Shown: positions 42,218 through 62,985, counted from the first letter of the stretch. The stretch is 64,000 nt of DNA from an uncultured Peptostreptococcaceae bacterium (GCA_964424355.1 CAYRIO010000014.1:2890-66889), one strand, 5' to 3'. The notes: generated by a model from the letters alone, not told the origin. A program made the numbers and translations.

Positions 42218-42228
42218 TATTCCATCTC
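42218..42228. repeat. att core copy distal to guaA
   Basis: TATTCCATCTC is identical to 61445-61455. The minus-strand reading here gives ...GIEME-stop, which mimics the guaA C-terminus ...GTIEME-stop. Confidence 0.7.
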
Positions 42229-42330
42229 AATTCCGAAAAGCGTTGCACTGGTGATTTTATGTGGTTTTACGTTGCTATTGTTGCATATTTTCGTGTTTTT
42301 TGCAGGGTGTTTTTTGAGTGTCGGGAAAAG

Positions 42331-42350
42331 TGGAGTCAATTTGGAGTCAC
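42331..42350 (+). repeat. paired arm-type repeats TGGAGTCAA-N2-TGGAGTCAC
   Basis: Two GGAGTCA cores lie 11 bp apart. The same paired arrangement occurs at 61367-61386. Confidence 0.55.
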
Positions 42351-42680
42351 AACACAGTGCCACCTCGGAACGCTGACTATCATCGCCAAACAAAATGATC
42401 AAGGTTATATCAAAGGGAGAATTGTGCCTAATTGAACAAGTGTGCTATTTATCTTTTTTGTGTTAACCCTTGCATCTTGCTAAATTGATTTACGATACCG
42501 CGCTTCCATATTTATGGTATATCAAGTTTTTCAAATGCATAATGTGAGTTGGTCGACTCGCGTATCTTCATGAATATTCCTACTTACAAACACAAAAAAA
42601 ACGAGATAAATCTCACCTTTTCGTGTTGATATTAAGACTGCAATTATCTGTTCCAAGCAAAAAATGGATTTCAACAAGAG

Positions 42681-43067
42681 TTAATCTATTGCATTTTCGA
42701 TACTATCTTTACGACATGCTACAACTGATATCCCTTTCTCTTTCCAGTATGTAGCGACGGCATTGGTAGCGCACGTATCCACCGCAATAATTGTCTTTCC
42801 TTTCCCAATTGCATAGTCTATTTCTTTACGCCCCATGCTCCCTACCATTACAGCCGCAGGACGTGCAGGTGCAAGAACCACACTCGCGCTGTCAATCTTA
42901 CCTTTAATAGCAGTAGTCACTTCTCTAACGGTCCCAACCAATGGATTTGAACTCTCAACCGACCTATCAGATACATCATATTTTGTCCGATCAATTGCCG
43001 CACTGATTTTATCAAAATCGTCTTTATAATCCCAACGGTGACTTATGAACACATTTTTCTTTGCCAT
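42681..43067 (-). CDS. small TIR-like protein (ThsB/DUF1863-like), 128 aa
   Basis: MAKKNVFISHRWDYKDD is the beta-A strand motif. ...SVVLAP... and GRKEIDYAIGKGKTIIAV carry a conserved Glu82 in the position of the ThsB catalytic Glu. The RBS is GGAGGG. Confidence 0.65.
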   Translation of the reverse strand: MAKKNVFISHRWDYKDDFDKISAAIDRTKYDVSDRSVESSNPLVGTVREVTTAIKGKIDSASVVLAPARPAAVMVGSMGRKEIDYAIGKGKTIIAVDTCATNAVATYWKEKGISVVACRKDSIENAID

Positions 43068-43190
43068 TATTCAACCCTCCATTTTTATTTCCATAGGTGC
43101 AATGTAAGTTTTGTGTACAATAAACAACCAGCAATCCATCGTCAGTAGCTAAACAGAGATGCCACATTATTAAAAGTTATCGACATGATT

Positions 43191-44159
43191 CTATATCGTA
43201 TTCTTTTTTGCAAGTTGCCAATAGTGTTGCCCTTGTACGGTTAATTTACAAAATTTGCGATTGATCGCTGCATAATACATGTGTTCGGCACCTACAGGTA
43301 CCACTAAGTTGAGTTTAACATATTTTTGCAAAATGGCAAATATTGCTTCATGAGCTTTGTCCACTTCTTTCGTGTCTGCTTCATGCTTATCTGGCTCATA
43401 TGTTGGATCTAAAGCAAATTCATCATATGGCGTACTGAAAAACTCTGTAATTCTACGCAATTCGGCTATTTCAATCGGTGGTGAATTCTTTCTTAGAGAT
43501 ACAAAGCCGCTAATATTTGCTTTAAAAATCGGTCGTTGCTCCCACCATCCAAGAGAACGATCGATATACGAATAAATGCTGCCAGGAGAAACTTCCCCAA
43601 GTAGATTCATAGCACCGCCATATAATGCTTCAATCAGCAAAGTTGTAAATACTCCATGTCCATTTTCCTCAGATGAATATTGCTTTTCATCGCATGCAGC
43701 TAGTATAGTAGTTCCCTTATGTAATACTGAATAATGTTGCATTTGATTGGAGCTAGCTACAAGCCCACTATGGCAGCTATCAAGTATCACAACTTTGTTA
43801 CTCGCTTTTGATTGAGCTACAATACCCATTAGATCATTCAAGGATAAACCCTCGTCTACACGGCCCACTTCACTTGTACATAGATATCCACCAAGAGCAT
43901 CATATGAGCCATGTCCAGCATAATATAACACAGCTATCTCCGATTGACCTTCAAAAAGCTCCTGAATCGCATCTTTTAGAATCCCTCTTGTAATGTATGA
44001 TGCATCACTAGTCGCACACAACAACTTGGTTTGAAAGTTCAATGTGCCATCTCCATTACGTTCCAACACAGCATTTACTCCATTTGCATCATTGACGCAC
44101 CCGTGTAAAGCTTTAATTTTTTCATAACTGTCAATTCCAACACATAATGCTTTTCTCAT
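43191..44159 (-). CDS. caspase-like (peptidase C14) protease with an uncharacterised C-terminal domain
   Basis: ALCVGIDSY and LHGCVNDA are present. The catalytic His lies in VLYYAGHG (His83) and the catalytic Cys in VVILDSCHSG (Cys129). The last 130 aa or so match nothing I recognise. The RBS is AAGGAGG. Confidence 0.8.
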   Translation of the reverse strand: MRKALCVGIDSYEKIKALHGCVNDANGVNAVLERNGDGTLNFQTKLLCATSDASYITRGILKDAIQELFEGQSEIAVLYYAGHGSYDALGGYLCTSEVGRVDEGLSLNDLMGIVAQSKASNKVVILDSCHSGLVASSNQMQHYSVLHKGTTILAACDEKQYSSEENGHGVFTTLLIEALYGGAMNLLGEVSPGSIYSYIDRSLGWWEQRPIFKANISGFVSLRKNSPPIEIAELRRITEFFSTPYDEFALDPTYEPDKHEADTKEVDKAHEAIFAILQKYVKLNLVVPVGAEHMYYAAINRKFCKLTVQGQHYWQLAKKNTI

Positions 44160-44287
44160 TATATTTGCCTCCTTAATTCCTTTACAATAGTTATACTCCG
44201 ACCGAATTTATCCAACACTTTATGCATGAAAACGAAAAGTGCTTGCACGCATCCATCATACCTAGTCATTATCGCAAAACTGTAAAA

Positions 44288-45955
44288 TCATATGTCCCTA
44301 TACTTTAACAACAGCTCATATTCATTCATTCTATCAATCAAGTGATTGTTAAGCTGCTCAGCTCTTTTAAAACCATTGATCCCAAGTATTGATCTATACG
44401 GTGAATCAGTAAACACTTTTATACACCTTAGAATATCATCAGCCAAAGAGCTGTTCGCTCCGTTTTCGTCAACATTATTCTTAAAATCCATGCTATTTAA
44501 AAAATCAACTATTTCTTGAGATGCTTGCTGAGGATCATAGTTTCTGTTCCCTGTCTCTATACCCAGCTTTGAGCGAATGTAGCCAAGATCATTTTGGGCA
44601 AACACCTTACTGAGGAATATTATCAAAGTTTCTTTTAGCATTTCAATGTCTCTATTGTTGACAATAACGCGAGTACTCATATAAAAGTACTGCAATCTTG
44701 AAAAAGTCTCTTCAAACGTATCTTTACAGAAACGTTCTACATCACTTTGTTTTATTTTAGTTCGCGCAAAGGGTAAGAACTTTTTTTCGAACCACTCCGC
44801 AGCTGTTCGTATTCCCCATCTGTCTTTGCCATTGATATAAGATATCGATTTGTGGTTCAAATCAACGAAGTCACTTATGTCAACATAAACAGTAACGTAG
44901 TCATGTTGAATGCTGTCATCTTTCACCGCTCTATATATCACATGTTCACCCGCGTTTAGATTCCGATTGTATGAAATAACCGGACTATACACATGAATAT
45001 AGTTATAGTTGCGTTGAAAAATATGCCACTCGCTTTTTCCATTGTCCCAATCATAATTATTCGCAAAATCAATTAGTTCGAGCCAGAGACTTCGATCAAT
45101 ACTTGCGATTTTATATGCGCACACACCGTCCAACATTTTATAATTTTCCACTTCATAACCAACTTCATACTTTCTCAAGTTCATAATATAATTTTCTTTA
45201 TTATCATGTATACATTTGAGAAATTGATCAACACTGTTCTCTTTTATTGGCATAAAAAAAGCATCTGATGCAAATTGCTTAATATGTCCATTCGCCCACT
45301 CCCAATCACGATATTCCCGGAGAAACAAGTCTGTTGTTTGTTTGTGACTCAATAAGATCACAGTATCTTTGTATAATATTCTTGTTGATAATCTAGGCGG
45401 TGTACCATCACACATTATTTCAATATTTACTTCATCTTCATCAATTTTTTCTATTAGTGAAATCGGAACATTATCCCAATCGCATTCTTTTTGGGAGTTA
45501 TCCCTGCTCGTATCAAGACTATGTCTCAGGCGATTCAAAGATCTCTCGTAATGTGCATCTGATGACATATCATGATAGTCCATCGTATCTAATTTTCTTG
45601 GCAAAAATTCACTTTCCTTTTCCTGTTTTGCCAATACAAACAGCAACGATTCTTTTTTCCGTTGACTTCGCTTGATTATATTATCCATTTCAATTTCAAC
45701 ATGCGAGCGCATTTTATCCGAATATGGTTTGTTAGCTTTCTTAACGTATGAAGGTGTCACAATAATCAATATGTAATCGGCTTCATCCATTTCATCAGCT
45801 ATAAAGCGTGAAATATCGCGACCCCCAACTTGGCCTTCATCTTGGTCGTAAACAATCGAATATTTTTCACTATTTAGGTCCGTAATCAGCTTTTTAATTA
45901 AACGAGTATCTGTATCGTCTCTGCTATAACTAATATAAATTTTTGCTTTTTCCAT
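44288..45955 (-). CDS. TIR-domain protein with a C-terminal domain of about 400 aa and unknown function
   Basis: The ATG at 45955 follows AAGGAGGTG. KIYISYSRDD, YILIIVTPSYVKK, SHVEIEMDN (candidate catalytic Glu) and LLFVL form a bacterial TIR core. The remainder is unrecognised. Confidence 0.75.
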   Translation of the reverse strand: MEKAKIYISYSRDDTDTRLIKKLITDLNSEKYSIVYDQDEGQVGGRDISRFIADEMDEADYILIIVTPSYVKKANKPYSDKMRSHVEIEMDNIIKRSQRKKESLLFVLAKQEKESEFLPRKLDTMDYHDMSSDAHYERSLNRLRHSLDTSRDNSQKECDWDNVPISLIEKIDEDEVNIEIMCDGTPPRLSTRILYKDTVILLSHKQTTDLFLREYRDWEWANGHIKQFASDAFFMPIKENSVDQFLKCIHDNKENYIMNLRKYEVGYEVENYKMLDGVCAYKIASIDRSLWLELIDFANNYDWDNGKSEWHIFQRNYNYIHVYSPVISYNRNLNAGEHVIYRAVKDDSIQHDYVTVYVDISDFVDLNHKSISYINGKDRWGIRTAAEWFEKKFLPFARTKIKQSDVERFCKDTFEETFSRLQYFYMSTRVIVNNRDIEMLKETLIIFLSKVFAQNDLGYIRSKLGIETGNRNYDPQQASQEIVDFLNSMDFKNNVDENGANSSLADDILRCIKVFTDSPYRSILGINGFKRAEQLNNHLIDRMNEYELLLKYRDI

Positions 45956-45993
45956 AAAACACCTCCTTGTATGGAGCATCCGAATTACCGGAT

Positions 45994-47337
45994 TTAGAAA
46001 TAATGGCTCACCAGCATATCTCCCAACAATTTCAACGCGCTTTCCTCTTCGGGATCGTTCGTTCCTAGTTCTCCACGAAAGGCACGAGCAAGGATGGATT
46101 TTTTCATGGAATTAATCAAATCCAAAGTGTCACAAAGTTCCTCTGCCTTTTGCTCTTTTGCAACAATGTCATCAAGAATGATTGATATTTTTTCTTGCTC
46201 AATATAAGTAAAATTTGGTACAGGTATTTGACCTACTATACCTTCGTTAAGGTTTTTCATCGTGATACCTTTTGCATTTACTTCTAGATATTCTACCGTT
46301 GCCTGGCTAGACAAAATCCGCGAATACAACAATCCGCTATACGCTTCTGGCATGCGGATTCTGACACTACCAGTTCCACACAACCATCCATTTTCATTGC
46401 TTGAAACGTACGCCGTACGCCCCATTTCACCTCTTCTGGCCATGATTATGTCATTTTCTTTCAGCTTATATTTCGATAATTCCTCTGCCTTTTCTTTAGA
46501 TATTGTGACACTATCTTGTGGAAATATCTTTTGATTAACTATGTGCTTCGGATTTATAACAGGAATACCGCCTTCAATGTAATCTTTAGCATGAAGCATT
46601 GTTCCAAATGGTCCAATTTTGATTTCCTGAGCAATTGTCTTCAACTCAACAATCGAGGGAATAGCACCAATCAATTCCCCACTAAAAGCCTTATGAAGAA
46701 TGGCCGCCTTCCGATTTTCAAAGGAATCCAGCGCATCCTGAATAAGCCCTTTTGCCTGATCCAGCTTTTCAAAAAGGCTTTCAATGCTGTCGACGATGCG
46801 TTGTTGCTCGGGGAGGGGAGGGAGAGGAAATGGGAGAGTGGACATTTTCCCTTTATTTACAATAGATATCGTTGTCGCTGAAGCAAGGTTTCGGAGCTCA
46901 TTAACGAAAGACTCTGAATTGCAGTAGTAGTATGTAAACAATTTGTTGAATTTAGGTATCAGTGTATTTATTTGCTGGTTCGTAGTTGATTCCATCTCAA
47001 TATATCCGCACTTACCAATGGTTCCGATACAACATACACTTGTAGAACCTGATGGGATGATTCTTGACACACTTCTCCCCTTATCAGTTAAATACTCTGA
47101 TGCAAAGTTCACATGCCTTCCTTGATCAAGATCCGCAGGCTTAACAAACGGAAAACTACCTCCATAGAACTCATTATTGTTCTTGCTTGGAGTCCCGCCA
47201 GTTACAATATCGGATACTTCGTTAAGCCTCACCCAAACCCAATTTTCCAGCACCTGATATGGCTGCTCACCCTCTGGCACCAATGCCTGTTCCAACAGTT
47301 CCTTCGGCGTTAAATCCTTCGCATTAACCTTCGCCAT
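45994..47337 (-). CDS. hsdS: type I restriction-modification specificity subunit
   Basis: Two target-recognition halves are each followed by a conserved helix (LPPLPEQQRIVDSIESLFEKLDQAKGL and EQEKISIILDDIVAKEQKAEEL). Confidence 0.9.
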   Translation of the reverse strand: MAKVNAKDLTPKELLEQALVPEGEQPYQVLENWVWVRLNEVSDIVTGGTPSKNNNEFYGGSFPFVKPADLDQGRHVNFASEYLTDKGRSVSRIIPSGSTSVCCIGTIGKCGYIEMESTTNQQINTLIPKFNKLFTYYYCNSESFVNELRNLASATTISIVNKGKMSTLPFPLPPLPEQQRIVDSIESLFEKLDQAKGLIQDALDSFENRKAAILHKAFSGELIGAIPSIVELKTIAQEIKIGPFGTMLHAKDYIEGGIPVINPKHIVNQKIFPQDSVTISKEKAEELSKYKLKENDIIMARRGEMGRTAYVSSNENGWLCGTGSVRIRMPEAYSGLLYSRILSSQATVEYLEVNAKGITMKNLNEGIVGQIPVPNFTYIEQEKISIILDDIVAKEQKAEELCDTLDLINSMKKSILARAFRGELGTNDPEEESALKLLGDMLVSHYF

Positions 47338-47339
47338 GA

Positions 47340-48749
47340 TTACTTTCCCTCCAACGAACGGAGTTCCTTCACCACGCTCTGAATCAAGTCTACAGCCTCT
47401 TCCAGCTTGGCAATGATTTCTTCGCCGCTTTCGATGGGGTCCTGCAGGTCTTCATAATCCAGAATGCTATCATCCCGAATAAGCCCCAGGTCTAGGCTGT
47501 TGTTCTTGGCCGCTATCTGCTCACGGGTATAGCAATTAAACCGCTCATCCTTCACTTGGGTCCGGTCTTCAGCAGTATAGGCTTTGATAAAGTCTTCAAA
47601 ATGCTCTTCCTTCAAGGTGTTGGTCTTGCCAAAGTTCTGCATATTGGTGCGAAGATCGAAGAACCATACATCCTTGGTATTGCCCTTTTCTGCCTTGCCA
47701 CGGGTAAAGAAAAGCACATTGGTCTTAACCCCTTGAGCATAGAAAATACCAGTGGGCAGACGCAGGATGGTGTGTAGATTGCATTTATCCATCAAGTCAG
47801 CTCGAATAGACGCGCCATCCCCATCGGCAAACAGCACATTGTCCGGTAAAATCACTGCCGCTCTGCCGTTAGTGTCTAGGCTTCGGTAGATGTGCTGTAG
47901 AAAATTCAGCTGTTTGTTTGAGGATGGATAGACCAAGTCTTTTCGTGTAGCACGCTCTCCACCTTTCTTGGTTCCAAAAGGCGGATTAGTAAGCACCACA
48001 TCAAAGTACTTCATCGTCTCACCCTGACTAGACAGGGTATCGGCCAGCAGGATCTTTCCGTCAATATCATGAAGCATAGCATTCATCAAAGCCAAACGGT
48101 GGGTTTCGTGAACCAGCTCACAGCCGGTGAAAGCCTTGTTAATTTGGAAGTTTTGCTGATCCACTGATAGCACTTCCAAGTTACTCGTTTGGTCTTTAAT
48201 ATGTCGGTCTGCCGCTATCATAAAACCAAATGTGCCACAGGCTGGATCGTTGCACCGCTCACCGGGTTTGGGATCAATCAGCTTTGTCATAATATTGATC
48301 AGCACACGGGGCGTAAAATACTGCCCCGCACCGGATTTCTTCTCATTAGCATTTTTCTCAAGCAAGCCTTCGTACAGGTTGCCAAGCCCTTCTTCCCGTG
48401 CAGAATACCAGTCCAAGGCATCAATAGAGGTAATGATTTTTTCTAAGTTCTTAGGCTCTTCAATATTGGAACGGGAGCCTGCATAGATTTCACGAATGCG
48501 GCCCGTACATTCTTCACCTAGGTGGGTAAGGAGTTTAAGATAGTACTTTTTCAGTTCAATACCGGATTTGCCCACCAGCTCATCCCATCGGTAGGCTTCA
48601 GGAATGGCGCTTTCCGTAGCGGTTTCTTTAGCCATTTTCAAAAATAGAATATATGTTAGCTCGGTAACATACTGATGATAGGTAATGCCATCATCACGAA
48701 GCACATTACACAGGTTCCAAAGCTTTGCTACGATCTCTTGATTATTCAT
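47340..48749 (-). CDS. hsdM: type I R-M N6-adenine DNA methyltransferase subunit
   Basis: An N-terminal HsdM_N-like segment (LWNLCNVLRDDG) is present, with DPACGTFGF (motif I) and VLTNPPFG (motif IV). Confidence 0.9.
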   Translation of the reverse strand: MNNQEIVAKLWNLCNVLRDDGITYHQYVTELTYILFLKMAKETATESAIPEAYRWDELVGKSGIELKKYYLKLLTHLGEECTGRIREIYAGSRSNIEEPKNLEKIITSIDALDWYSAREEGLGNLYEGLLEKNANEKKSGAGQYFTPRVLINIMTKLIDPKPGERCNDPACGTFGFMIAADRHIKDQTSNLEVLSVDQQNFQINKAFTGCELVHETHRLALMNAMLHDIDGKILLADTLSSQGETMKYFDVVLTNPPFGTKKGGERATRKDLVYPSSNKQLNFLQHIYRSLDTNGRAAVILPDNVLFADGDGASIRADLMDKCNLHTILRLPTGIFYAQGVKTNVLFFTRGKAEKGNTKDVWFFDLRTNMQNFGKTNTLKEEHFEDFIKAYTAEDRTQVKDERFNCYTREQIAAKNNSLDLGLIRDDSILDYEDLQDPIESGEEIIAKLEEAVDLIQSVVKELRSLEGK

Positions 48750-51700
48750 GATGCCACATTGCCTCCGTCGTCATATAGATAGTCGTTCAGCTCGTCCAAT
48801 ACTTCATCCAGTTTTTCATCAAAGATTTTGTTCACGCGACCAAAGCCACCCTGCTTTTTGAAAGCTCCTGTATCGAAAGATTCCTTAGTGATGACCGATT
48901 CGTTCATCAGGTATTTTTCCATGCGCTCAATCCAGCCCATTTCCATCCTGCTGAATTTGTGATTCTTTTTCAGCCGTTCAACTGCCCGTTTGATTCGCTC
49001 TTCATGGTTAAGAAGCGCCGAACCTAGGGCTTGCTGGCGAATGAGGCTGATGATATCTGCTGCAATATCCTCATTCTTGAGTTCTTTAAGAGCAGTATTG
49101 AGCTGCTGTTCTGTAAATTGGTGTCGGTCTAATTCAAGCTTCAAGCTTTTAAGACTCTCACGGGTCAGCTCTTTCGGTCGTGTACACACCACATTCAGGG
49201 CAGCAATTTGGTTCATGTTTTCTGTAATAAATACTCTGAATTCCTCCAGATAGTCTCCTGGCTTTTTCCCATTATAGTCTCGCGTATGACTACGAAGCTC
49301 ATCCTGTTTTTGTGAAATGACAACGGGTTTCCGGAAACCTGTACCCCCTTCATTCAACAGTTCGAACAGTTTCTTGTGTTTCAGAATATGGGCTTTGGCC
49401 AGTTCTGCAGGCATGGATTTAATCAGTTCAATAAATCCTGTGGGGCTTAATCCACCGGAAAGATCCACAAAATGCTCCATGGTTTTTTCTGAAATGTCTC
49501 TTTTTTTCCGTTGTAGTTTAGCTAAGATCATATCGATCTGGCTTTCTACCTGACGCTCTGTATGTAATACCTCCAAGCCGCCTAGCAAATCATCAAACGT
49601 TGTTGTTGCATTGGCTACAACCGGTTTCATGGTGCTCACCGGCTGCAGAGATTCGTAGACCCCTACAGGATCATAGATTTCGAAATGGGTTTTTCGGATG
49701 GCAGGGCAAAGCCTTGTGGCGCGACCGACCATCTGTTCAAACAAAATCCGTGATTTAACCCGCCGCATAAACACAAGGGTGCTAATTTCAGGCACATCAA
49801 TTCCCGTTGTCAGCAAATCCACCGTAACCACAACGTTGGGGTATTTTTCATTCTTAAATTTTTTAATGGCTTCCATGATCTTCTTCTTATTTCCACCCGC
49901 CACACTGCCGGTAATTTTCATAATGGCTTCGTGATCTACACCCCGGGGCTCATAAATCTCTTTTAGAATTTTAACAATCATATCTGCATGAGCATCATCC
50001 ACGGCAAAGATTAAGGTTTTCCCTTCTCCATCCGGATCTAACTCAATTGCGATTTCTTCCAAATTCACACGGTTAAAAGACTCCGTTATCACCCTACGAT
50101 TAAACGTGTCCACATCAAAACGAATCTCATCTTCAATTTCATCACTATTAGTTATTTCTCCAGTGACCGGATCATAAATTACAACGGTTTCACCTTTTTG
50201 AAACACAATACCATCTTCACTCAACTTGGTTGTAAGGGTGTGAGGCGCATCGTGGTCCACTAAGTAGCCTTCTATAACCGCTTCACGATAGGTGTAGTTG
50301 AAGACGGGTTTTCCGAAAATTTCAGTCGTATGTAAAGCAGGGGTTGCAGTTAAGGCGACTTTTACAGCATCAAAGTAATCCATTACCGAACGGTACTTGC
50401 TAACGTAGTCATCCTGATTCCGGTACAGAATTTCATCCTCATCCATTTCTTTATCCAGAATATAGCCTCGGTGAGCTTCATCCACCACAATCAGGTCATA
50501 ATCGGATATGGCTGGAATTATATTCCCTTCATTGAACATAATCCGCTTCACCATACTCTGGACTGTGGCGATCTGGATCTTAGTTTCTTTCTCAGGTATG
50601 CTCTCCCCAAGGTTTTTAATATCGTAGATCTCATCCAAGGTCATAAGTTCTTCGATTTTCACCTCTTTAAACACGTCTTGAGCCTGTTCACCAAGGGCAG
50701 AACGATCTACCATGAACAAGATTCGTCTAAACCGATCGGTTTTCAGGAAGCGATAGATCATCCCCAACACCGTACGCGTTTTTCCGGTTCCGGTAGCCAT
50801 AGACAGAAGAACAGTATCCCTGCCGTTAATAACGGCATTTTCAGCGGCTTTAATAGCTTGTACCTGATAATCCCGCAGGTTAAGACCGTCTGGATCAGTT
50901 AAAAGGTCGTATTCATAGTTCTGAAGCTTGTGGTTGGCTGCTTCGATATCCTTTTCCAGCAATTCGCTGATTCCAGAAGGGCTCATCCACCCCTGCTGAA
51001 CCTTTGGAATGTTATAAGGCTTACGAACATCCAAACACCAGATGCCGGACTTGGTTTCTAGCTGTTTCAGATACTTTCGCCCGTTAGTTGCAAAGAGCAA
51101 AGGTACTTTATAACCGTCCCACTGGCCGACCATATACTCCTCATCTTCGTCTTTTATTCCTTTTGCATAATCTTTGCACTGGTAATCAATCACAGAGGGA
51201 ATATCAGCAGCCATTCGTTTGGCTTCGATGATGCCCACCAGTTTCAAGTCTACGAAAAGAGCATAATCTGCATATCCGTGGTCCCCAACGGTGGAATTGG
51301 TGGGCCATTCTGCAATAGCCAAGTTCCTGCCTTTCTCCGGCCGGGTTCCTTTAGAGTAGCGAAAATTCACCGTATCGACTTCCCAGCCCACAAGTCGTAA
51401 CTGTGCATCAATCAGATAGCGGGTTTCCTGTTCCGACAGTTCCATCATCTTGAGGGCAGATGAAGCCCGTTCAACGCGCTCAGATTTTGACACAACTTTT
51501 AAAGGCTTTTGGTTCTTTAGCTGCTCATTCAGTTGCTCAATAAGAGCTTCTTTATCTTTAAGGAGTGATTCATAGTCCACATCATTCCGCTGATCTTGAG
51601 GACTCACGAAAGTTTCCGCTTGGTACTGCCAATCTCCATAGGTCTGCATAAACCAAATAGCCAAGGTGTGTGCCATTTCGAGACGGATTTTACACTCTTC

Positions 51701-52641: not shown

Positions 52642-52650
52642 GATTGTACA

Positions 52651-54081: not shown

Positions 54082-54205
54082 CACTTTGACAGCATGACAC
54101 TTTACCATTATGCATTCATAGTGCTAAGCATTCTAGAATTGCGCCATAGTGAATTCAGATTCAAAGCGGTTTGCTAATCCATCCGTAATGAGAGCTTTAA
54201 AAGCA

Positions 54206-54236
54206 AAAGCGAGCGGCCTAAGCCCCTCGCTTTTTT
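54206..54236 (+). terminator. rho-independent terminator
   Basis: The stem GCGAGCGG / CCCCTCGC is followed by TTTTTT. Confidence 0.65.
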
Positions 54237-54240
54237 ACGT

Positions 54241-54263
54241 AAACAGCCCTGAAAATGACAGGG
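54241..54263. repeat. hairpin-containing repeat copy 1 (AAACAGCCCTG..AAATGACAGGG)
   Basis: It is nearly identical to 55146-55173. The two copies bracket the membrane-protein gene at 54264-55115. Confidence 0.6.
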
Positions 54264-55115: not shown

Positions 55116-55145
55116 TATTTTCCTTTCATCTACATTTTTTTAAAT

Positions 55146-55173
55146 AAACAGCCCTGTCAAATGACAGGGCTGT
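55146..55173. repeat. hairpin-containing repeat copy 2, with terminator-like structure
   Basis: ACAGCCCTGTCA-aa-TGACAGGGCTGT is a perfect 12-bp palindrome that shares the AAACAGCCCTG...AAATGACAGGG string with 54241-54263. Confidence 0.6.
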
Positions 55174-55409
55174 AGCATTTTCTTATTCACCGTCTACTTG
55201 TAACACGCATAACGGGTAGCGTACACCATTTTAAACGCTGTAAGGTGGTAAGCGCCCACCCTCTTATTAGTCGCATGGGTGATTGCGAGATACTTACGGG
55301 TTCATTTTACATCAACTTGTTCGAAGGTTCAATACAAATATTGTAACTCAAAGCGTGCAGCTGCAGCCAGGATGATCTGAAAAAAATGAGTTACATTGAT
55401 TTCTGCAGC

Positions 55410-55910
55410 TTAATTTTGCTTTTCGAATATTGTATAGTAGTTATCCGCTTCTCCACCAGCTCCAACCTTAGCAGAAACATAGGTAACTGCTGCTTCACTG
55501 CGGTCATCCTTCAGGAATGTCAGCTGAGTAATTCCACCATCTGCTTTGATTTGAATTTGCCGGGCTCTGGTGTTTACGCTGCCAGCGCGAATCATTTCAA
55601 GAATCAATTCATCTTGAGATATCGTATACGTGCCATTGCCCCACGTTTCAGCGTGCGATACGCCCAAATCCGAATCTTTATCACCCTCAGTGGTGTAAGT
55701 GCCATCCTTGTTAAAAGTGATGCTCCAAGTCTTATAAGCCGGCATTTCAGGAATATCTTTGTAGTACCTCCACGTCCCCACAATCAGGCTATCCATCTCA
55801 ATACGGAGCTCAGAAGCTAATCTGTCTGGAGACGCACTTTCTTTTGAGCATCCAAACAGCGTCAACGCTATGATGCAGCTTAAAGCAATGATCATTTCCT
55901 TTTTCATCAA
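55410..55910 (-). CDS. lipoprotein (hypothetical)
   Basis: It has a signal peptide with the lipobox LTLFGC. It is 166 aa. Confidence 0.65.
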   Translation of the reverse strand: MMKKEMIIALSCIIALTLFGCSKESASPDRLASELRIEMDSLIVGTWRYYKDIPEMPAYKTWSITFNKDGTYTTEGDKDSDLGVSHAETWGNGTYTISQDELILEMIRAGSVNTRARQIQIKADGGITQLTFLKDDRSEAAVTYVSAKVGAGGEADNYYTIFEKQN

Positions 55911-55916
55911 GCCCTC

Positions 55917-56747
55917 CTACGCCGCATTGAATATCGACTTCGACAGTTTACCAGTCATAAAAATAGCAATTACAAGCACCATCGTATAACGCAGCACCTC
56001 CCAGAGTACTGCCGTCACATCAACGGGATCAAATTCGGTTGCAATCCCAGCAATCAGCGTTCCGTACATACTGAGAATGATGTAAATCAATACCCCTTGC
56101 ATGCATACGGCGAGAAAGTTCTTTAAAAAATTCTTACCAATCTGGCTGGCTTCGGAGTTCCCAAGGGTAGCCATCGGGAGAGCAGCAACCGCCATCATAA
56201 CATATATCTCAATCATCCTTCCAAAGATGATCACGCTGATCATTGTCGTGGAGAACTTATAAACAAGCCACAGTATCGATATTTGGGATGCCATCATAAG
56301 CTTTACACCAAAGTCCATATTTCCTATGGTTTCTCGCATCACTTCTAGATTTTGAGCTATATTGGGTGCATTTGCTCCAAATACGTTTCCAATGTTCATG
56401 ACGACCTCATTACTCATCTGAAATATTGCTCCAAGAATGAGTGGCGTGCTATCCAAAGCTAGCTTGCATAATGCAAATTTGAACATAATCCTAAACGGAA
56501 TCTCTGTTCCAAGGGTTCCATTAAGCCCATCAGTGCGAACAATGATATTATTCAACTCCAATAGGAAAAACAGGGCTAGAAGCATGTATCCAATTGGCAT
56601 AACCGCATTCGTTGCTATTGTTGTAACCCCGTTGTACAAAACGGCATTAAAGGTTTCAGGAGTCTGCGTTAATATGCTCGTATTTGAACCGAGGCTTTGT
56701 GTTCCAACAATCATACTTCTAACCAATCCAACGATATAGTCTTCCAC
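55917..56747 (-). CDS. polytopic membrane protein, possibly VirB6/TrbL-like
   Basis: It is 276 aa with 5-6 helices and lies in the transfer and replication backbone of the element. The family call is tentative. Confidence 0.45.
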   Translation of the reverse strand: MEDYIVGLVRSMIVGTQSLGSNTSILTQTPETFNAVLYNGVTTIATNAVMPIGYMLLALFFLLELNNIIVRTDGLNGTLGTEIPFRIMFKFALCKLALDSTPLILGAIFQMSNEVVMNIGNVFGANAPNIAQNLEVMRETIGNMDFGVKLMMASQISILWLVYKFSTTMISVIIFGRMIEIYVMMAVAALPMATLGNSEASQIGKNFLKNFLAVCMQGVLIYIILSMYGTLIAGIATEFDPVDVTAVLWEVLRYTMVLVIAIFMTGKLSKSIFNAA

Positions 56748-56750
56748 GCT

Positions 56751-57080
56751 CTAATACCTCCCGTTCCTTTTCCCAACCACTTTTTTCAACTCCAACACTT
56801 TCCTTACTGCCAGTTTCAAAGTCCACCCGAGCGCCGCTATGGAGCTTATCAGCATTGGTATAGAGACAATAGCCGGTAGGTTGGGATCAAGGCCGATGAA
56901 GTATGCAGCCACAAAGGGATATATAATAATCATGGTTTCTTTTCTTGGCATTATCCTGATTTTTCTCATTTTTCTATTTTTAACCTCCGAATGATGTTTT
57001 TTTACCGTGTAGCAGACTACACGGCTTAAAATTCTATCCATCTTTTGTTTTATCCGATAGGACTTTTTGAAAGTTAACAT
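56751..57080 (-). CDS. small membrane protein (hypothetical)
   Basis: The ORF has a basic N-terminus and two hydrophobic segments. The start is uncertain. Confidence 0.4.
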   Translation of the reverse strand: MLTFKKSYRIKQKMDRILSRVVCYTVKKHHSEVKNRKMRKIRIMPRKETMIIIYPFVAAYFIGLDPNLPAIVSIPMLISSIAALGWTLKLAVRKVLELKKVVGKRNGRY

Positions 57081-57361
57081 TCAAAACCATCATTCAAATG
57101 CGAGGTCAGGATCTTGTTTTTAACTCTTGGATCGACCATGCAGCTTGGACGGATTCGATGCTTTTCGAAATTGTAGATTTTATCTGCGTTCTTGTACAGA
57201 TACTTGTCTCCGGCAATGATGCAGAACAGAATTTTTCGGCTTAGATCATCATCACTGGTCTGGTCTCTAATCATCAGTTTGAATTGCCGCTTAATGAACT
57301 TACTTGGGAAACACCGACCTTTAATATCGCCGCTTTGAATAGTATCACTAAACCAAGACAT
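57074..57361 (-). CDS. hypothetical protein
   Basis: This 95-aa ORF is tightly packed between its neighbours. No family was recognised. Confidence 0.4.
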   Translation of the reverse strand: MSWFSDTIQSGDIKGRCFPSKFIKRQFKLMIRDQTSDDDLSRKILFCIIAGDKYLYKNADKIYNFEKHRIRPSCMVDPRVKNKILTSHLNDGFEC

Positions 57362-57384
57362 AAACGGGTCCTCCTTTCATATCT

Positions 57385-57723
57385 CTATGACATCCTCATT
57401 AGCTTGCTTAAAAGCTCATTCACCAATCCAACAATCCTTTCCTGAGCAGCTACCATCTCGTTGATATCCGCTTCATCAATATGCTTGCATTCATTTGCAA
57501 CACGGGCGATTTGATTCACATTGCTCCCGATTTTGCCCAACTCTCCTGTGAGCTTTTTCACATCGCTATAATCTTTTTTGATAACATATCCATCGATAGC
57601 CATTTTCCGCAGATACCCTCCTTTGTTCCTTGTTCCAAGCTGCTTCATCTTTGTTTCAATCATTTCGATTTCTTCGTTTGTCACCATGAAATAGATCGGT
57701 ATTGTCCGATATCTTTCTGCCAT
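57385..57723 (-). CDS. MobC-like relaxosome accessory protein
   Basis: The ATG at 57723 follows AGGGAGG. An RHH-like N-terminus (IPIYFMVTNEEIEMIETKMKQLG) is present, and LGKIGSNVNQIARVAN matches the MobC signature. Confidence 0.7.
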   Translation of the reverse strand: MAERYRTIPIYFMVTNEEIEMIETKMKQLGTRNKGGYLRKMAIDGYVIKKDYSDVKKLTGELGKIGSNVNQIARVANECKHIDEADINEMVAAQERIVGLVNELLSKLMRMS

Positions 57724-57960
57724 CGCAGCCTCCCTTGCAGGCTCTATAAAAGGGGATTGGGGGAAACCCCAACAAGCGGAAACATCAAAGCATCCAACGG
57801 ATGATTTTGATCGTTTCGGGCAAGTGTATATACACTTGCAATGCTTGCTATCCTCAAAAACGTTATTGCACAAGAACCAGAAACCCCAATCCGCCTTCGG
57901 CTATCCTCGCTCAAATTCTCGCTCGGAAAGCATGATGGATTGAATCTAAATCCCCCATCC

Positions 57961-58947
57961 TTAAACTTCAAGAGCATTCAGCTTCACCTTATAGGTCAAC
58001 AGGCTATTCCAGATGCAGGATTTCATGTATGGGATAACAGCCCGAATTTCCTGCTGCCTGCTCACATCATCAAACTCAAATACAAACGCATGAACGAACT
58101 CCATTATGTTCAACAAACCGTAGGACCAATCTATTCTCTGGTTAATCATATCTATTACCTTTGCGTAGGTTACCGCAGACCCTTTATACTTCTCGACACC
58201 GTCCATGCATGCCATATCGATAAGGCACACCATAAACAGCTTGTAGATTTCTTGCTTGGATTCTTCATGGTAGCCTTGGATGCTATAGCTGTCCCAATTG
58301 GTTAGAATATGAATAGCTCTTGTCATTTTTCCTCTGTCAGCTTTAAATGAATATGGGATGCCCCTGTTGGATCGTATTTCGTATTCAATATCGTCTGAAC
58401 GGCTATGAGCTTTACCGGTCATGAAGTCAATCACTCCATCATATTGATAGATTGATTCATCAGTATAATCATTATTTAGTTCTATTGGTTCTTTAGTTAA
58501 ATCATTATTTAGTAGCTTCGGGTTTTCCGTATTCGGTTTATCCGTTTTCGGATTCTCCGGATACGGTTTAACCGGATACGGATTTCCCGTTTCTGGTTGA
58601 ACGCCTTCATTCTCAATATTAAAGCCAGATTCTGTGCTCGGAAGCTCATAAACACTGTATAAGTATCCTCTCAGAAGCCCCCTTTCATCTCTGTTAATCT
58701 CACGAGTGCAATACCCATACTTCATCAACTCTTTTATGCCGGATGCCGTCCCATCTCTGCCATCTGCAGCATGCTTTTTAAGTTCATTCACGTAGATTTT
58801 CCAATCATCCGGCAGTGCCAACAAATAGCTCATCAGCCCCTTCGCCTTCCAGCTCAGCCTTGGATCATTGATTACCGCCTTATCTATCATCACATAAGGA
58901 TTTTCTCTGTGTTTTACCCTAATCATGGTTTTGGACGAGTTCGACAT
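57961..58947 (-). CDS. winged-helix replication initiator / replisome-organiser-like protein
   Basis: YVMIDKAVINDPRLSWKAKGLMSYLLALPDDWKIYVNELKKHA...GIKELMKYGY is typical of DnaD/Rep-type N-domains on Firmicute mobile elements. A Pro-rich pentapeptide linker follows. Confidence 0.6.
   Translation of the reverse strand: MSNSSKTMIRVKHRENPYVMIDKAVINDPRLSWKAKGLMSYLLALPDDWKIYVNELKKHAADGRDGTASGIKELMKYGYCTREINRDERGLLRGYLYSVYELPSTESGFNIENEGVQPETGNPYPVKPYPENPKTDKPNTENPKLLNNDLTKEPIELNNDYTDESIYQYDGVIDFMTGKAHSRSDDIEYEIRSNRGIPYSFKADRGKMTRAIHILTNWDSYSIQGYHEESKQEIYKLFMVCLIDMACMDGVEKYKGSAVTYAKVIDMINQRIDWSYGLLNIMEFVHAFVFEFDDVSRQQEIRAVIPYMKSCIWNSLLTYKVKLNALEV
58527..58601. repeat. five imperfect 15-bp tandem repeats inside the rep-like gene
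   Basis: The units are CCGTATTCGGTTTAT / CCGTTTTCGGATTCT / CCGGATACGGTTTAA / CCGGATACGGATTTC / CCGTTTCTGGTTGAA. Confidence 0.7.
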
Positions 58948-58978
58948 TATAGCCCCACCTCTTTTTCACTGCCGCTAC

Positions 58979-59296
58979 TTATTTTGCATCTATAACACAC
59001 TGAATTTCTTTGAGCAACGCTCTGATTTCTAGCAGTAGCTTTTCAATTTCATCTGAATCATCCGATAGGATTCTACTGCATTCTTCTCTCAATTTCTTGA
59101 TTTCAAGACTCAGCCGGTCGCTTTGGTACCTTCCTGCCATGATGTTGATTTGACTCTCTAAAATCGATCTGCGTATGAACTCTGCCTTCGGCGTGCCGCT
59201 GACTTTATAACGCGCTTTAATCAATCGGCCTTCTTCAGGCGAAACACGGAAGGATATGGTTTTATTTCGAAAACGGTTATAATCTAATCCCGGCAT
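58979..59296 (-). CDS. ribbon-helix-helix-like small protein (MobC N-domain-like)
   Basis: KTISFRVSPEEGRLIKARYKVSGTPKAEFIRRSIL is an RHH pattern. The start overlaps the integrase stop. Confidence 0.5.
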   Translation of the reverse strand: MPGLDYNRFRNKTISFRVSPEEGRLIKARYKVSGTPKAEFIRRSILESQINIMAGRYQSDRLSLEIKKLREECSRILSDDSDEIEKLLLEIRALLKEIQCVIDAK

Positions 59297-60360
59297 TCAA
59301 AATCCTCCTTAAACTCCTCTGCCAGTTTATTTGCAATTGCTTCTTGCTTATTTGGATACAAATGAGCATATACCATCGTAGAATGTAACGAAGAATGACC
59401 GAGGCGCTGTCCAATTTCCAAAATAGGAAAATTCAATTCGATTAAATGGGCCACATGCGAATGCCTCAATGAATGAGTTTTGATTTTTTTAACCCCACTG
59501 ATCCTTACGCCACGCTTCATTTCACTCATCAAGTACCCCTTCGTAATCGGAAACAGTCTGTCATTGTCAGCAATCCCATAACAACTCTGAATAAAATCGT
59601 TGAGTATTTCTGAAAGAAATTCGGGTATACTGACCTCACGCCTACTTTTTGGAGTCTTCGGCTCTGTAATAACATCCCGACCGCTCAGTCTTTGATATGA
59701 CTTCGTAATTGAAATGGTTTTTTTATCAGTATTAATATCTGTTTTAGAAAGTGCCATAAGTTCGCCAATACGAATTCCGGTGTAATAAAGCGTCATAAAG
59801 GCAACATACGACACGCGTTTATCCATCACAGCATCAATGAACTTAGAAAATTCTTCTTTAGTCCAAAACTCCATCTCATCAGCCTTATTTCTTCCCATTG
59901 TTTCGCCTTTAGAGCATGGATTGCTTTTCAAATCGTGATATCTAACAGCATGTGAAAAGATTGCATTTAATTGATTTTGTATCGTACGAAGATAAGTTTG
60001 CGAATATCCCTGATTAATCAAACCGTTCTGCCACTTACGTATGTGAACCGGCTTTGTTTCATTCATCTTAAGACGGCCCAGTACAGGACTGATTTTTAAA
60101 TCAATAATGTACTTTTTTGTCCTCATTGTGTGTTCTCTTAATCGCGGCCCAACGTCTGCATAATACAACTGGATATAGTCAGCTAGCAGCATGTTTAAAT
60201 CTACTTGTTGGGTCATTATATAGTTCCTGAGCCACTCTTCCGCTTCCCTCTTTGTTGAAAACCCTCGTTTTGTAGATTTTTTAGTGTTTCCAAAAACGTC
60301 CTTGATTCGATATTGAATCTTCCACTTTCCAGCGATGCTGTCTTTTTGAGCTTTCAGAAT
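59284..60360 (-). CDS. int: tyrosine recombinase/integrase; the arm-binding N-domain lies upstream of the first ATG
   Basis: The catalytic region is HSLRHSHVAHL...LGHSSLHSTMVYAHL. The first ATG is at 60216, but the frame stays open to 60363. That extension encodes KWKIQYRIKDVFGNTKKSTKRGFSTKREAEEWL, an Arm/AP2-like domain. Only ATT (60360) or CTG (60357) is available as a start, after AAAGGGGTGA. Confidence 0.8.
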   Translation of the reverse strand: MLKAQKDSIAGKWKIQYRIKDVFGNTKKSTKRGFSTKREAEEWLRNYIMTQQVDLNMLLADYIQLYYADVGPRLREHTMRTKKYIIDLKISPVLGRLKMNETKPVHIRKWQNGLINQGYSQTYLRTIQNQLNAIFSHAVRYHDLKSNPCSKGETMGRNKADEMEFWTKEEFSKFIDAVMDKRVSYVAFMTLYYTGIRIGELMALSKTDINTDKKTISITKSYQRLSGRDVITEPKTPKSRREVSIPEFLSEILNDFIQSCYGIADNDRLFPITKGYLMSEMKRGVRISGVKKIKTHSLRHSHVAHLIELNFPILEIGQRLGHSSLHSTMVYAHLYPNKQEAIANKLAEEFKEDFECRD

Positions 60361-60378
60361 TTGTCACCCCTTTATGCA

Positions 60379-60561
60379 CTATGATTGAAAAAAGCGTTTT
60401 TCGAAATACTTTGCTGGTATACGGCCTGTGATAACGATATATCCGCTTTCTTCTAGTTCTTTGTTGAGCTTTCGTATAATCCTGTAACTTGATCCGACTG
60501 AAATTTGTAGCAGTTCACTCAAATCGTGCGCACGAAGCATAAGTTTGTCATCTGTTTTCAT
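60379..60561 (-). CDS. excisionase-like small HTH protein
   Basis: It is 60 aa. LRAHDLSELLQISVGSSYRIIRKLNKELEE is an HTH pattern, and the gene lies directly upstream of int. Confidence 0.65.
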   Translation of the reverse strand: MKTDDKLMLRAHDLSELLQISVGSSYRIIRKLNKELEESGYIVITGRIPAKYFEKRFFQS

Positions 60562-60581
60562 AAAATGATTCTCCTTTCAAT

Positions 60582-60659
60582 AATGTAACTCATTAGCTAC
60601 ATTTGTTTTTCGCCGCATTATATGCCACATTTTCAACATTGTCAAATTTGAGTTACATT
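60582..60659. promoter_or_regulatory. divergent switch region with 11-bp inverted repeats
   Basis: AATGTAACTCA (60582-60592) and TGAGTTACATT (60649-60659) are perfect reverse complements. They lie between the xis-like and XRE genes. Confidence 0.5.
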
Positions 60660-60718
60660 TTTGAATGCACATAACTCCTCTATATTCTTTGTGATACTAT
60701 AAACATGGTGGTGATAAA

Positions 60719-61363
60719 ATGACAATCGGCGAAAAAATACGGTATTTCCGAAAACAACGCGGCATGAACCAACTACAATTAGCTGAGTCCGCAGGTATCC
60801 ACCACGTTTCGATACGTAAATACGAAACAAATAGATCACAACCCCAATTCTCCCAAATTGAAAAAATCTCACAAGCCTTGAACATCAGCACAAATGTTTT
60901 TGTAGATTCAGAGGCCGCTCACTTTCGTTTTGAGACAGTCGGAGATCTAATGGGGATACTAATTATCCTATGCAACTCAAAAATCATTAGTATTACCGGA
61001 GAAAGAACGGTCGATGGATTCATTAGCAACGAAACCATCTCAATAAGAATCAACCCTGTCCTTGCATCTTTTTTTGCGTTCTGTACCGATAACTATTCAA
61101 ATGGCAAAACCCTTTTAACTCTCAACGAAATTCACTTATTGATAGCAAACCCTCTCATTTTACCGGATATTCTTAAATGGGAACGGATTAGCCACCTGTA
61201 TGATATCGCTATTTCTAAACACAGCGATAATGCTAATGAAGCTACAAAGCTAGCTTTTAAAGAACTTTCCTCAATAAAAGAACAGTTTGAGTTAGAAATG
61301 CAGCGTTCTATGATACACCTTGATTTGTCTGACGGAATCAGAGTTAGAATGACAGAATATTAG
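60719..61363 (+). CDS. XRE-family HTH regulator (element repressor candidate)
   Basis: MTIGEKIRYFRKQRGMNQLQLAESAGIHHVSIRKYE is a classic XRE HTH. The 150-aa C-terminal domain is unrecognised. Confidence 0.8.
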   Translation: MTIGEKIRYFRKQRGMNQLQLAESAGIHHVSIRKYETNRSQPQFSQIEKISQALNISTNVFVDSEAAHFRFETVGDLMGILIILCNSKIISITGERTVDGFISNETISIRINPVLASFFAFCTDNYSNGKTLLTLNEIHLLIANPLILPDILKWERISHLYDIAISKHSDNANEATKLAFKELSSIKEQFELEMQRSMIHLDLSDGIRVRMTEY

Positions 61364-61366
61364 TTT

Positions 61367-61386
61367 TGGAGTCAAAACGGAGTCAA
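61367..61386 (+). repeat. paired arm-type repeats TGGAGTCAA-N2-CGGAGTCAA
   Basis: It has the same GGAGTCA pair with 11-bp spacing as 42331-42350, in the same orientation, about 60 bp from the att core. Confidence 0.55.
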
Positions 61387-61397
61387 AAAATAAAAAG

Positions 61398-61435
61398 AAC
61401 CCCGAAAACATTGTTTTAGCAATGCTTTCGGGGTT
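61398..61435. terminator. bidirectional terminator serving guaA and the XRE gene
   Basis: The arms AACCCCGAAAACATTG and CAATGCTTTCGGGGTT pair with one mismatch. A and T runs flank the stem. Confidence 0.75.
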
Positions 61436-61443
61436 TGTTGTTA

Positions 61444-62985
61444 CTATTCCATCTCTATAGTCCCCGGCGGTTTCCCCGTGCAGTCATAGAACACACGGTT
61501 CACGCCTTTGACTTCATTTACGATTCGTGTCGTTACTTTGCCCAACAGCTCCCAGGGCAGCTCTGCACTTTCCGCTGTCATGAAGTCGGAGGTGGTGACG
61601 GCCCGAAGTACGACGGCATAGTCGTAGGTTCTAAAATCTCCCATGACGCCGACGGAGCGCATGTTGGTCAGGGCTGCAAAGTACTGGTTGATCTCTTTAT
61701 CGACACCGGCTTTTGCGACCTCTTCACGGTAGATGGCATCGGCTTCCTGGACGATTTTCACCTTTTCCGCGGTGACTTCGCCGATGATGCGGATCCCTAG
61801 ACCGGGGCCGGGGAAGGGCTGCCGGAATACCAGCTCGTGGGGGATACCCAGCTCCAGCCCTGCTTTTCGCACTTCATCCTTAAAGAGCATCCGAAGGGGC
61901 TCGACGATTTCTTTGAAGTCCACACAATCGGGGAGTCCGCCCACGTTGTGGTGGGATTTGATGACTGCGGATTCTCCATGGCCACTTTCGATGACATCGG
62001 GATAGATGGTTCCCTGAACCAGGAAGTCCACGGTGCCGATTTTCTTCGCTTCTTCTTCGAACACGCGGATGAATTCTTCCCCGATGACCTTTCGCTTGGC
62101 CTCCGGCTCTTCAATGCCCTGGAGCTTTGCATAGAACCGTTCCTGGGCGTTGACCCGGATGAAGTTCAGATCATAGTCGCCCCCTGGACCGAAGACGGCT
62201 TCCACTTCATCCCCCTCATTCTTCCGAAGGAGACCATGGTCCACAAAGACGCAGGTGAGCTGGCTGCCCACTGCCTTTGAAAGCAGCACCGCGGCCACGG
62301 AGGAATCCACGCCTCCGGAAAGGGCGCAAAGCACCTTGCCGTTTCCGACCTTTTCCTTGATGGTCCGAATGGCTTCTTCCACAAAGGAATCCATCTTCCA
62401 GTCGCCCTTGCAGCCGCAGACATCCTTGACGAAGGCTCCCAGCATTTTTGTTCCTTCCTGGGTGTGGTTCACTTCCGGATGGTGCTGCATGGCATAGAGG
62501 TTCTTTTCGGTGTTTTCCATGGCTGCCACGGGGCATACCGGGGTGGAGGCCGTGATGACAAAGCCTGCCGGCACCTGTGAGATATAGTCCGTATGACTCA
62601 TCCAACAGATGGTCTTCTCGGAGACCTCCTTGAACAGCATGGATTTCCGGTCGACCGTCACTTCCGTTCTTCCGTACTCGGATACCGGCGCGGTTTCCAC
62701 CTTGCCGCCCAGTTGATGGGCCAGGAGCTGTGCGCCGTAGCACAGGCCCAGAATGGGAATCCCCATTTGGTACAGTTCCGGCTGACACTGGGGCGAATCC
62801 TCTCCATAAACGCTGTTGGGCCCCCCCGTAAGGATGATGCCCTTGGGATTGATTTGCTTGATCTCCTCAAGGGAAATCGTGTAGGGGTGCACTTCGCAGT
62901 AGACGCTCAGTTCCCTTACTCTTCTTGCAATCAGCTGATTATACTGACCACCAAAGTCCAAAACGATTATTTTTTCCTGCTGCAT
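61444..62985 (-). CDS. guaA: GMP synthase (glutamine-hydrolysing)
   Basis: The GATase Cys lies in [10 protein letters not shown] and the PP-loop is SGGVDSSV. The C-terminus KPPGTIEME is typical. It is 513 aa. Confidence 0.95.
61445..61455. repeat. att core copy overlapping the guaA stop codon
   Basis: TATTCCATCTC is identical to 42218-42228. Confidence 0.7.

Follow-up and report, generated by a model that had tools for sequence, protein, structure and literature searches.

Next to guaA, the gene for GMP synthase, the 64,000-nucleotide stretch of DNA from an uncultured Peptostreptococcaceae bacterium analysed here (hereafter, the window, which means the whole stretch) carries a regulator gene divergent from an excisionase-integrase module, genes for replication and mobilisation proteins and a set of defence genes, all of which are enclosed by two copies of an 11-bp core sequence (Table 1). 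We consider that this segment, at positions 42218-61444, is a 19.2-kb integrative island, mobilizable and similar to IMEs (integrative and mobilizable elements), which was inserted site-specifically at the last codons of guaA, and the probability of this reading is estimated to be about 85%. A site-specific integrative element in the 3' end of guaA had been proposed in a preliminary description of the window, made from the sequence alone, and this proposal is supported by the anatomy of the locus and by comparison with a sister species (G002), with integrase relatives and with the occurrence of the arm motif in other genomes, as presented below.

Table 1. Features of the island, of its target gene and of the adjoining left flank, in window coordinates
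Feature	Position	Strand	Evidence or remark
guaA (GMP synthase), target gene, intact	61444-62985	-	GATase and GMP_synt_C domains
guaA-proximal core copy, attL-like junction	61445-61455		Overlaps the last codons of guaA and two stop bases
Element-supplied intrinsic terminator	61398-61435	-	-24.8 kcal/mol, z -7.0; 9 nt past the guaA stop
Proximal arm-type pair GGAGTCA-N4-GGAGTCA, 11-bp period	61368-61385	+	59 bp from the core
XRE-family helix-turn-helix (HTH) protein, 214 amino acids (aa)	60719-61363	+	HTH_3, 2e-13; relatives have homologues in this place
Sigma-70 consensus promoter TTGACA-17-TATAAT upstream of xis	60617-60645	-	12/12 matches
Excisionase (xis), 60 aa, ICEBs1 Xis-like	60379-60561	-	NF047858, 2e-16; beside int in relatives too
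Tyrosine integrase (int): Arm-DNA-bind_4, SAM-like and catalytic domains	59284-60360	-	Profile matches
NikA-like ribbon-helix-helix (RHH) protein	58979-59296	-	Overlaps the int end; int-nikA pair kept in most relatives
DnaD/RepA_N-like replication initiator or replisome organiser, 328 aa	57961-58947	-	PHROG replication initiation proteins, 4e-24
NikA-like/MobC relaxosome accessory protein	57385-57873	-	Domain matches
Five genes: DUF6075 (57074-57361), 109-aa protein, TrbL_2/VirB6-like membrane protein (55917-56747), lipocalin-like 166-aa protein, 283-aa protein	54264-57361	-	
Toxin-like 105-aa protein and HTH-Peptidase_M78 protein, 361 aa (PD-Lambda-2_B-like)	52698-54081	+	Library matches
HTH_26 regulator, then complete type I restriction-modification (R-M) genes hsdR, hsdM, hsdS	45994-52221	-	Library matches
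TIR protein, 563 aa; caspase-like C14 peptidase, 322 aa; short TIR-like protein, 128 aa	42681-45979	-	Library matches
Distal arm of the element	42229-42349	+	Closes with the second GGAGTCA-N4-GGAGTCA pair (42332-42349); distance to the core, 103 bp
Distal core copy, attR-like junction	42218-42228		Echo of the guaA end together with its neighbours (42217-42234)
Strong hairpin terminator outside the element	42034-42077	-	-29.7 kcal/mol, z -8.3; 139 nt beyond the echo stop
Accessory segment of 7.7 kb, not part of the element	34590-42217		Absent from both congeners

Junctions with guaA and arm-type sites

The 11-bp direct repeat that had been described at the bounds of the element was confirmed. 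The core, TATTCCATCTC, is present as two copies in the window, for which the chance expectation is 0.05 per window and none of 100 shuffles gave two copies; a scripted search of the whole 3.6-Mb assembly also returned two copies at the same two sites, which makes the repeat unique to the two ends in the genome. Reading of both junctions bore out the earlier observation that the minus strand at the distal end (GIEME-stop) echoes the guaA end (GTIEME-stop): the guaA product ends in ...PGTIEME-TAG, with the G of the stop codon lying on the element side of the core, and the minus strand of 42217-42234 reads GIEME-TAA, preceded by F (...FGIEME-TAA), representing an echo of the guaA end at the codon level. 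The bases just outside the core are the G of TAG at 61444 and the A of TAA at 42217. They agree with the claim that integration changed the guaA stop from TAA to TAG, which follows from the junction sequences. The new guaA terminator that had been assigned to the element was likewise found as a strong fold, and relatives also place a hairpin right after the guaA stop.

In two independent sequencing runs, SRR13723393 and SRR13723396, the Logan contigs were 100% identical to the window over both junctions, indicating that the junctions are not an assembly artefact of the metagenome-assembled genome (MAG). A second guaA copy was considered and rejected, as the genomes G000, G001 and G002 each have one guaA.

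Both arm-type GGAGTCA pairs have the same orientation, and the paired motif is found at only these two sites in the whole genome. Two other genomes (G073 and G082) also have this arm motif at the same position after guaA. Arms are thus present on both sides of the core and an arm-binding domain at the N terminus of the integrase, which is the arrangement of a lambda-type heterobivalent integrase, where the binding of the arms is predicted from sequence. The att direct repeats also lie, as in IMEs, at a specific target that is shared with relatives.

Integration and regulation module

As had been described, int, xis and XRE genes lie at the guaA side, and all three assignments were borne out by domain matches. 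The XRE protein is likely the repressor of the divergent xis-int operon. The score of Xis against its model was 59 bits, which is below the equivalog cut-off of 100. Alignment of the integrase to XerA indicated that the catalytic R, HxxR, H and Y residues are all present. The integrase/excisionase module expected of an IME is therefore found here, with the caveat that the start of the full-length integrase is non-canonical.

The integrase frame is open for 48 codons upstream of its first canonical start, the ATG at 60216, which falls after the arm-binding domain. The extended integrase matches Arm-DNA-bind_4 (PF14657) at 3e-12, with 46 bits against a cut-off of 22, and the coding span of the domain is 60217-60372, in frame upstream of the ATG. 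All the relatives have a homologous arm-binding domain behind a normal ATG, whereas the window codon aligned with that ATG is CTG (60355-60357), before which stands ATT (60358-60360). A Shine-Dalgarno sequence, AAAGGGGTGA, is located at 60363-60372, just upstream of CTG/ATT. The integrase may, therefore, be initiated at a rare codon, with low Int levels, or it may have lost its start and be made as an armless protein from the ATG at 60216. The non-canonical integrase start is the main doubt on whether the element is still active.

Replication and mobilisation genes

The preliminary description had listed replication and MobC genes, and both are present, but no relaxase is recognisable. The N terminus of the 328-aa protein matches phage replication initiators and DnaD-like loaders, and its homologues carry PF13730, PF07261 and PF06970. 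It was also considered as a relaxase and rejected, having no PDB match and being a DnaD/RepA_N-like replication protein. Among the scanned open reading frames (ORFs), no relaxase, coupling protein or VirB4 was recognised by comparison with Pfam, NCBIfam and PHROGs and, for unknown ORFs, by PDB sequence search; the 283-aa protein gave a marginal "nuclease" PHROG match (0.006) and no PDB match. With respect to the relaxase and the origin of transfer (oriT), only the NikA-like (two copies) and MobC accessories were seen. Because no relaxase was recognised, mobilizability is inferred from NikA and MobC only. The scanned ORFs do not include a complete mating-pore apparatus, to which the nearest gene is that of the TrbL_2/VirB6-like protein, and identity as an integrative and conjugative element (ICE) was rejected, as no type IV secretion system, coupling protein or relaxase was detected in them.

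Defence cargo

The presence of defence cargo on the element, noted previously, was substantiated as a type I R-M system, a TIR-caspase cassette and a toxin/HTH-M78 pair. In the TIR-caspase cassette, the matches were to TIR_2 (2e-13) and Peptidase_C14 (1e-17), and the PADLOC models "caspase" and "bSEFIR" also matched. A homologue of the caspase-like protein (44% identity) is found upstream of a related element in locus L025, where it is presumably the cargo of a preceding tandem element. The 105-aa toxin-like gene overlaps the start of the HTH-Peptidase_M78 gene, the best PADLOC match of which was PD-Lambda-2_B at 1e-47; neither the A nor the C partner of PD-Lambda-2 was identified.

Base composition, left flank and congeners

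The GC content between the core copies is 40.8%, compared with 54.8% for guaA/guaB, 57.7% for the conserved backbone and 51.4% for the genome, and that of the 7.7 kb left of the element is 48.7%. The earlier statement that the element is more AT-rich than both flanks, therefore, clearly holds on the guaA side and is weaker on the left side. The GC content of the window is uneven overall, being 42-47% in 1-13000 and 55-62% at 18-33 kb, and other acquired segments may sit further left in the window.

Synteny with both congeners (G001 and G002) picks up again only at about 34,590. The genes of the intervening segment encode a PDC-S01-type AAA_14 ATPase, a flavodoxin, FMN_bind and DinB proteins and two surface proteins with SLH and Cu_amine_oxidN1 domains; the AAA_14/DUF4143 ATPase matches PADLOC PDC-S01 at 3e-159. 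A different 13 kb stands at this place in G002. No further guaA-end echoes or arm copies that might delimit an older element were found left of 42217. The left flank at 34.6-42.2 kb may be older inserted DNA, and, as it is not ancestral, the state before insertion is not reconstructable from the congeners. The variable region as a whole, then, spans roughly 27 kb (34.6-61.4 kb), and the element is its guaA-proximal unit. The same holds for the terminator that the preliminary description had placed at 42032-42078 and taken for the ancestral one of guaA: the strong minus-strand hairpin is real, but because the flank is absent from both congeners it cannot be called the ancestral guaA terminator, and it is whatever stood after guaA when the element arrived.

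Both G001 and G002 are without the 19-kb region. The guaA gene of G002, a sister species of the same genus, is 86% identical to that of the window in DNA and 95% in protein, and its product ends in GTIELE-TGA. After it follow a GGAGTCA-N4-GGAGTCA pair, 3.6 kb without an integrase, a distal arm and an echo of its own, GIELE-TGA. The genes in this remnant (L014 10082-13672, G002:C12) are AbiEi-like, a truncated AbiEii and an AAA_14 ATPase. A 124-bp stretch of G002 is 84% identical to window 42226-42349, that is, to the last three core bases and the distal repeat pair. As the homology between the window and G002 stops at the core, the distal arm of the window represents a conserved element terminus. 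G002 carries at the same guaA site a decayed relative resembling a cis-mobilizable element (CIME). When the proximal ends of the two were aligned, the guaA ends aligned and the arm regions did not, because the GGAGTCA pairs are on opposite strands. A third copy of the arm region lies within the G002 remnant, at 11541-11579.

GuaA of the window genome and that of G002 are about 79% identical to GuaA of Lachnospiraceae and 59% identical to the single GuaA of G001. In G001 (L038, G001:C18:8000-18000), guaA is found upstream, not downstream, of the orthologous guaB (93% identity). It seems that one lineage of the genus replaced or relocated guaA.

An empty site joining 42217 to 61456 was not found: when GuaA and the AAA_14 protein of the flank were looked up by exact sequence, only the occupied arrangement was returned, and metagenome scans with the guaA-end 24-mer of the species and with a distal-arm 23-mer gave no matches. 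Of 40 relatives compared with a joined-flank query, only G002 was close enough, and its site holds the different remnant, with a further flank that is non-syntenic with the left flank of the window.

Integrase relatives at guaA ends

In many genomes, integrase relatives are located behind guaA or behind guaA-end echoes. In a scan of one genome per species, we obtained 21 integrase relatives with 45-61% identity, all of which were in Lachnospiraceae-type genomes. Nine of the 21 are located directly after guaA, in the order of stop, hairpin, paired repeats of 11-bp period, (XRE), xis, int and nikA, where the sequence of the repeat pair varies between subfamilies. Five more (L018, L021, L024, L025 and L028) have no guaA upstream and follow a pseudo-guaA end (IEFE-stop, for example), which indicates that they were inserted in tandem, into a preceding element's echo. 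In L016, repeat pairs oriented as in the window are present at both ends, one of them about 70 nt past guaA and the other about 105 nt short of the distal echo. This locus has the closest Lachnospiraceae integrase (9830-10920, 61% identity), with frameshifts in the arm-binding and SAM-like region; it is either a decayed copy or a MAG sequence error.

The arm motif TGGAGTCAA-N3-GGAGTCA was detected in 10 of 401 genomes of the order, representing eight genera, and the reversed control pattern in none. In most of the arm-motif loci fetched, a guaA-end echo in reverse complement (IEWE-stop or a close variant) stands about 105 nt away from the motif, and in two the motif follows a real guaA stop at about 60 nt. 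Furthermore, the window's own family has integrases of 38-46% identity that are likewise adjacent to guaA, with a different gene order.

The trio of xis, int and nikA(RHH) is the only module conserved across the family. In G073, the trio was considered as a minimal element of its own and rejected, since it belongs to a larger element, at the distal end of which it lies behind a gene for a DinG-like helicase. The related element in L026 has genes for AAA_25, TnpV and a Mob_Pre relaxase and, after these, HpaII R-M, AbiJ, FRG and GmrSD genes, from which it follows that at least some members of the family are complete IMEs and that defence cargo is typical of the family. Taken together with the congener, these arrangements suggest that the region downstream of guaA is a hypervariable hotspot in which related elements stack in tandem and decay.

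Alternative explanations

Several observations weigh against the island as described above or against its being functional. Neither an empty site nor an excised circle turned up in the collections searched; the left flank is, like the island, strain-specific with respect to both congeners and hence non-ancestral too; the proximal GGAGTCA pair of G002 is inverted relative to that of the window; nothing in the element was recognised as a relaxase, oriT, coupling protein or VirB4; and there is no ATG, GTG or TTG before the arm-binding domain, with CTG/ATT where the relatives have ATG, for which reason the domain may be poorly translated or untranslated. The last two of these points, together with the commonness of decayed members at this site (the integrase-less remnant in G002 and the frameshifted integrase of L016), would fit an island that was inserted as described and is now a fixed, decaying remnant, unable to excise or transfer alone and kept for its defence cargo. 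We regard such an outcome as a serious possibility, albeit a rather doubtful one, considering that the two 11-bp cores are still identical, that all frames are open, including the 48 codons upstream of the ATG, that neither xis nor the XRE gene nor the consensus promoter is damaged, and that a good Shine-Dalgarno sequence stands 5-7 nt before CTG/ATT, both of which are permitted as rare bacterial starts.

The int-xis-repressor module beside a replication initiator, the best PHROG matches of which are to phage replication proteins, could also be that of a phage satellite, similar to a phage-inducible chromosomal island (PICI) or a Staphylococcus aureus pathogenicity island (SaPI), or of a prophage remnant, in which case the 19 kb would not be mobilised by conjugation; the target gene is shared with some SaPIs. 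However, Pfam and PHROGs scans of the main ORFs revealed no terminase small subunit and no capsid-remodelling, packaging or structural genes, and the NikA-like proteins (two copies), MobC and TrbL_2 point to an ancestry in conjugative plasmids or ICEs; the Mob_Pre relaxase of the related element in L026 also argues against a satellite. PICI/SaPI identity was rejected, as the PHROGs matches were to the replication protein and a toxin only, with no packaging genes, and we consider an origin of this kind highly improbable. That the repeat is coincidental and the region is ancestral low-GC chromosome would agree with the lack of an empty site in any conspecific, but it is effectively refuted by the rarity of the repeat and the echo at the codon level, by the occurrence of the arm pairs at both ends only, by the association with guaA throughout the family, and by the two congeners, both of which are without the region, with G002 having homologous element ends at the same site. 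The site-specifically inserted, IME-like island is, therefore, preferred.

Discussion

The following mechanism may be considered for the island, by analogy with known systems. As in lambda-type heterobivalent integrases, the SAM-like and catalytic domains of the tyrosine integrase would bind the core, and the Arm-DNA-bind_4 domain would bind the GGAGTCA pairs, with the integrase bridging arms and core and strand exchange taking place within the shared 11 bp. The guaA gene stays intact because the site of the element mimics the guaA end (GIEME-stop); guaA would now have a stop base (TAG) and a terminator derived from the element, with its displaced original end (TAA) at the far junction. The XRE protein would repress the consensus promoter that is predicted to drive xis-int-nikA-rep-mobC, as in ICEBs1-like modules, and Xis, which would direct excision, would act with Int to release the element as a circle. 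Replication of this circle could fall to the DnaD-like protein, and NikA and MobC would mark an oriT for the transfer machinery that a helper conjugative element supplies. As the two cores share 11 identical bases although most of the relatives encode EWE or EFE, the incoming attP must have already had an EME-type core, which suggests that the element circulates among hosts with an EME-type guaA end.

The 3' end of guaA is known as the integration site of streptococcal IMEs with integrases of the Tyr_3 family (Coluzzi et al. 2017, PMC5357655; review, PMC5704250), which targets guaA/rplL; the IME class is used here sensu Guedon et al. 2017. The island resembles them in its target, in the preservation of the gene by an element-borne mimic and in having a tyrosine integrase with an excisionase and flanking direct repeats, and also in being small, with a replication or replisome-organiser gene, mobilisation accessories, no mating-pore genes and cargo at the far end. 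It differs in that no relaxase is recognisable and in that its host is of another lineage, the integrase relatives being in Lachnospiraceae genomes; moreover, the cargo is anti-phage defence, whereas in streptococci the stress is on resistance and bacteriocin genes.

SaPIbov1 is inserted at the GMP synthase gene, and some SaPIs use the guaA 3' end. Other guaA islands are ATE-1 of Trueperella, the IncP island of Brucella suis and GIsul2 of Proteobacteria (PMC5704250; PMC9376610). All of these resemble the present island in having a tyrosine integrase at the guaA 3' end, with rep and toxin-antitoxin genes aboard. Their hosts are unrelated, however, their integrases are probably unrelated, and their cargo and transfer differ, with resistance genes in some and phage packaging in SaPIs. 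With regard to regulation, the ImmR/Int/Xis system of ICEBs1 is similar in that Xis matches the ICEBs1 model and a divergent XRE gene lies beside xis-int, but there is neither an ImmA anti-repressor next to the XRE gene nor a conjugation operon here.

CIMEs are att-flanked remnants that can be mobilised in cis, and tandem accretion of elements is seen in ICESt1/ICESt3. The family described here is comparable in that G002 has an integrase-less segment with both element ends and in that five relatives follow pseudo-guaA ends, and it differs in that the repeats of the G002 proximal arm are inverted relative to those of the window, the mobilisation of the G002 remnant in trans being only putative.

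With respect to cargo, the gene for a TIR-domain protein next to one for a Peptidase_C14 protein is reminiscent of type IV Thoeris, which consists of a TIR protein and a caspase-like protease (bioRxiv 10.1101/2024.10.24.620036, PMC13243611). This likeness is by domain content only, and the cassette differs from type IV Thoeris in having an extra 128-aa TIR-like gene and, on the TIR protein, a long C-terminal region without assignment.

TcpM and MpsA are atypical, recombinase-like relaxases for which nicking for transfer has been proposed. It is conceivable, if improbable, that guaA elements likewise move without a conventional relaxase, either by recruiting the relaxase of a helper to the oriT of the element or by having the tyrosine recombinase nick with its NikA-like partner. 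In a related manner, integrase-less remnants with intact arms, such as that of G002, may be moved in trans; if so, the guaA hotspot would be an exchange point for defence cassettes.

In a full-text literature search for guaA-targeting islands in Lachnospiraceae, no paper was found. The family as such may, therefore, be undescribed, although this kind of element is well known. Current understanding is unchanged, because guaA-targeting IMEs and the carriage of defence genes by mobile elements have already been established. What is provided by this study is a cleanly delimited island in an uncultured gut-type Firmicute, in which the att core, the arm sites and the regulatory module have been placed at base resolution. 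It indicates that the guaA 3' end is used by an element family across several genera of the order and in Lachnospiraceae, with tandem stacking and decay, and that the anti-phage systems carried by the family are varied, including type I and II R-M, the TIR-caspase cassette, AbiE, AbiJ, GmrSD and the PDC-S01 ATPase. These findings should be useful for the annotation of defence islands and for predicting the movement of defence genes in gut communities.

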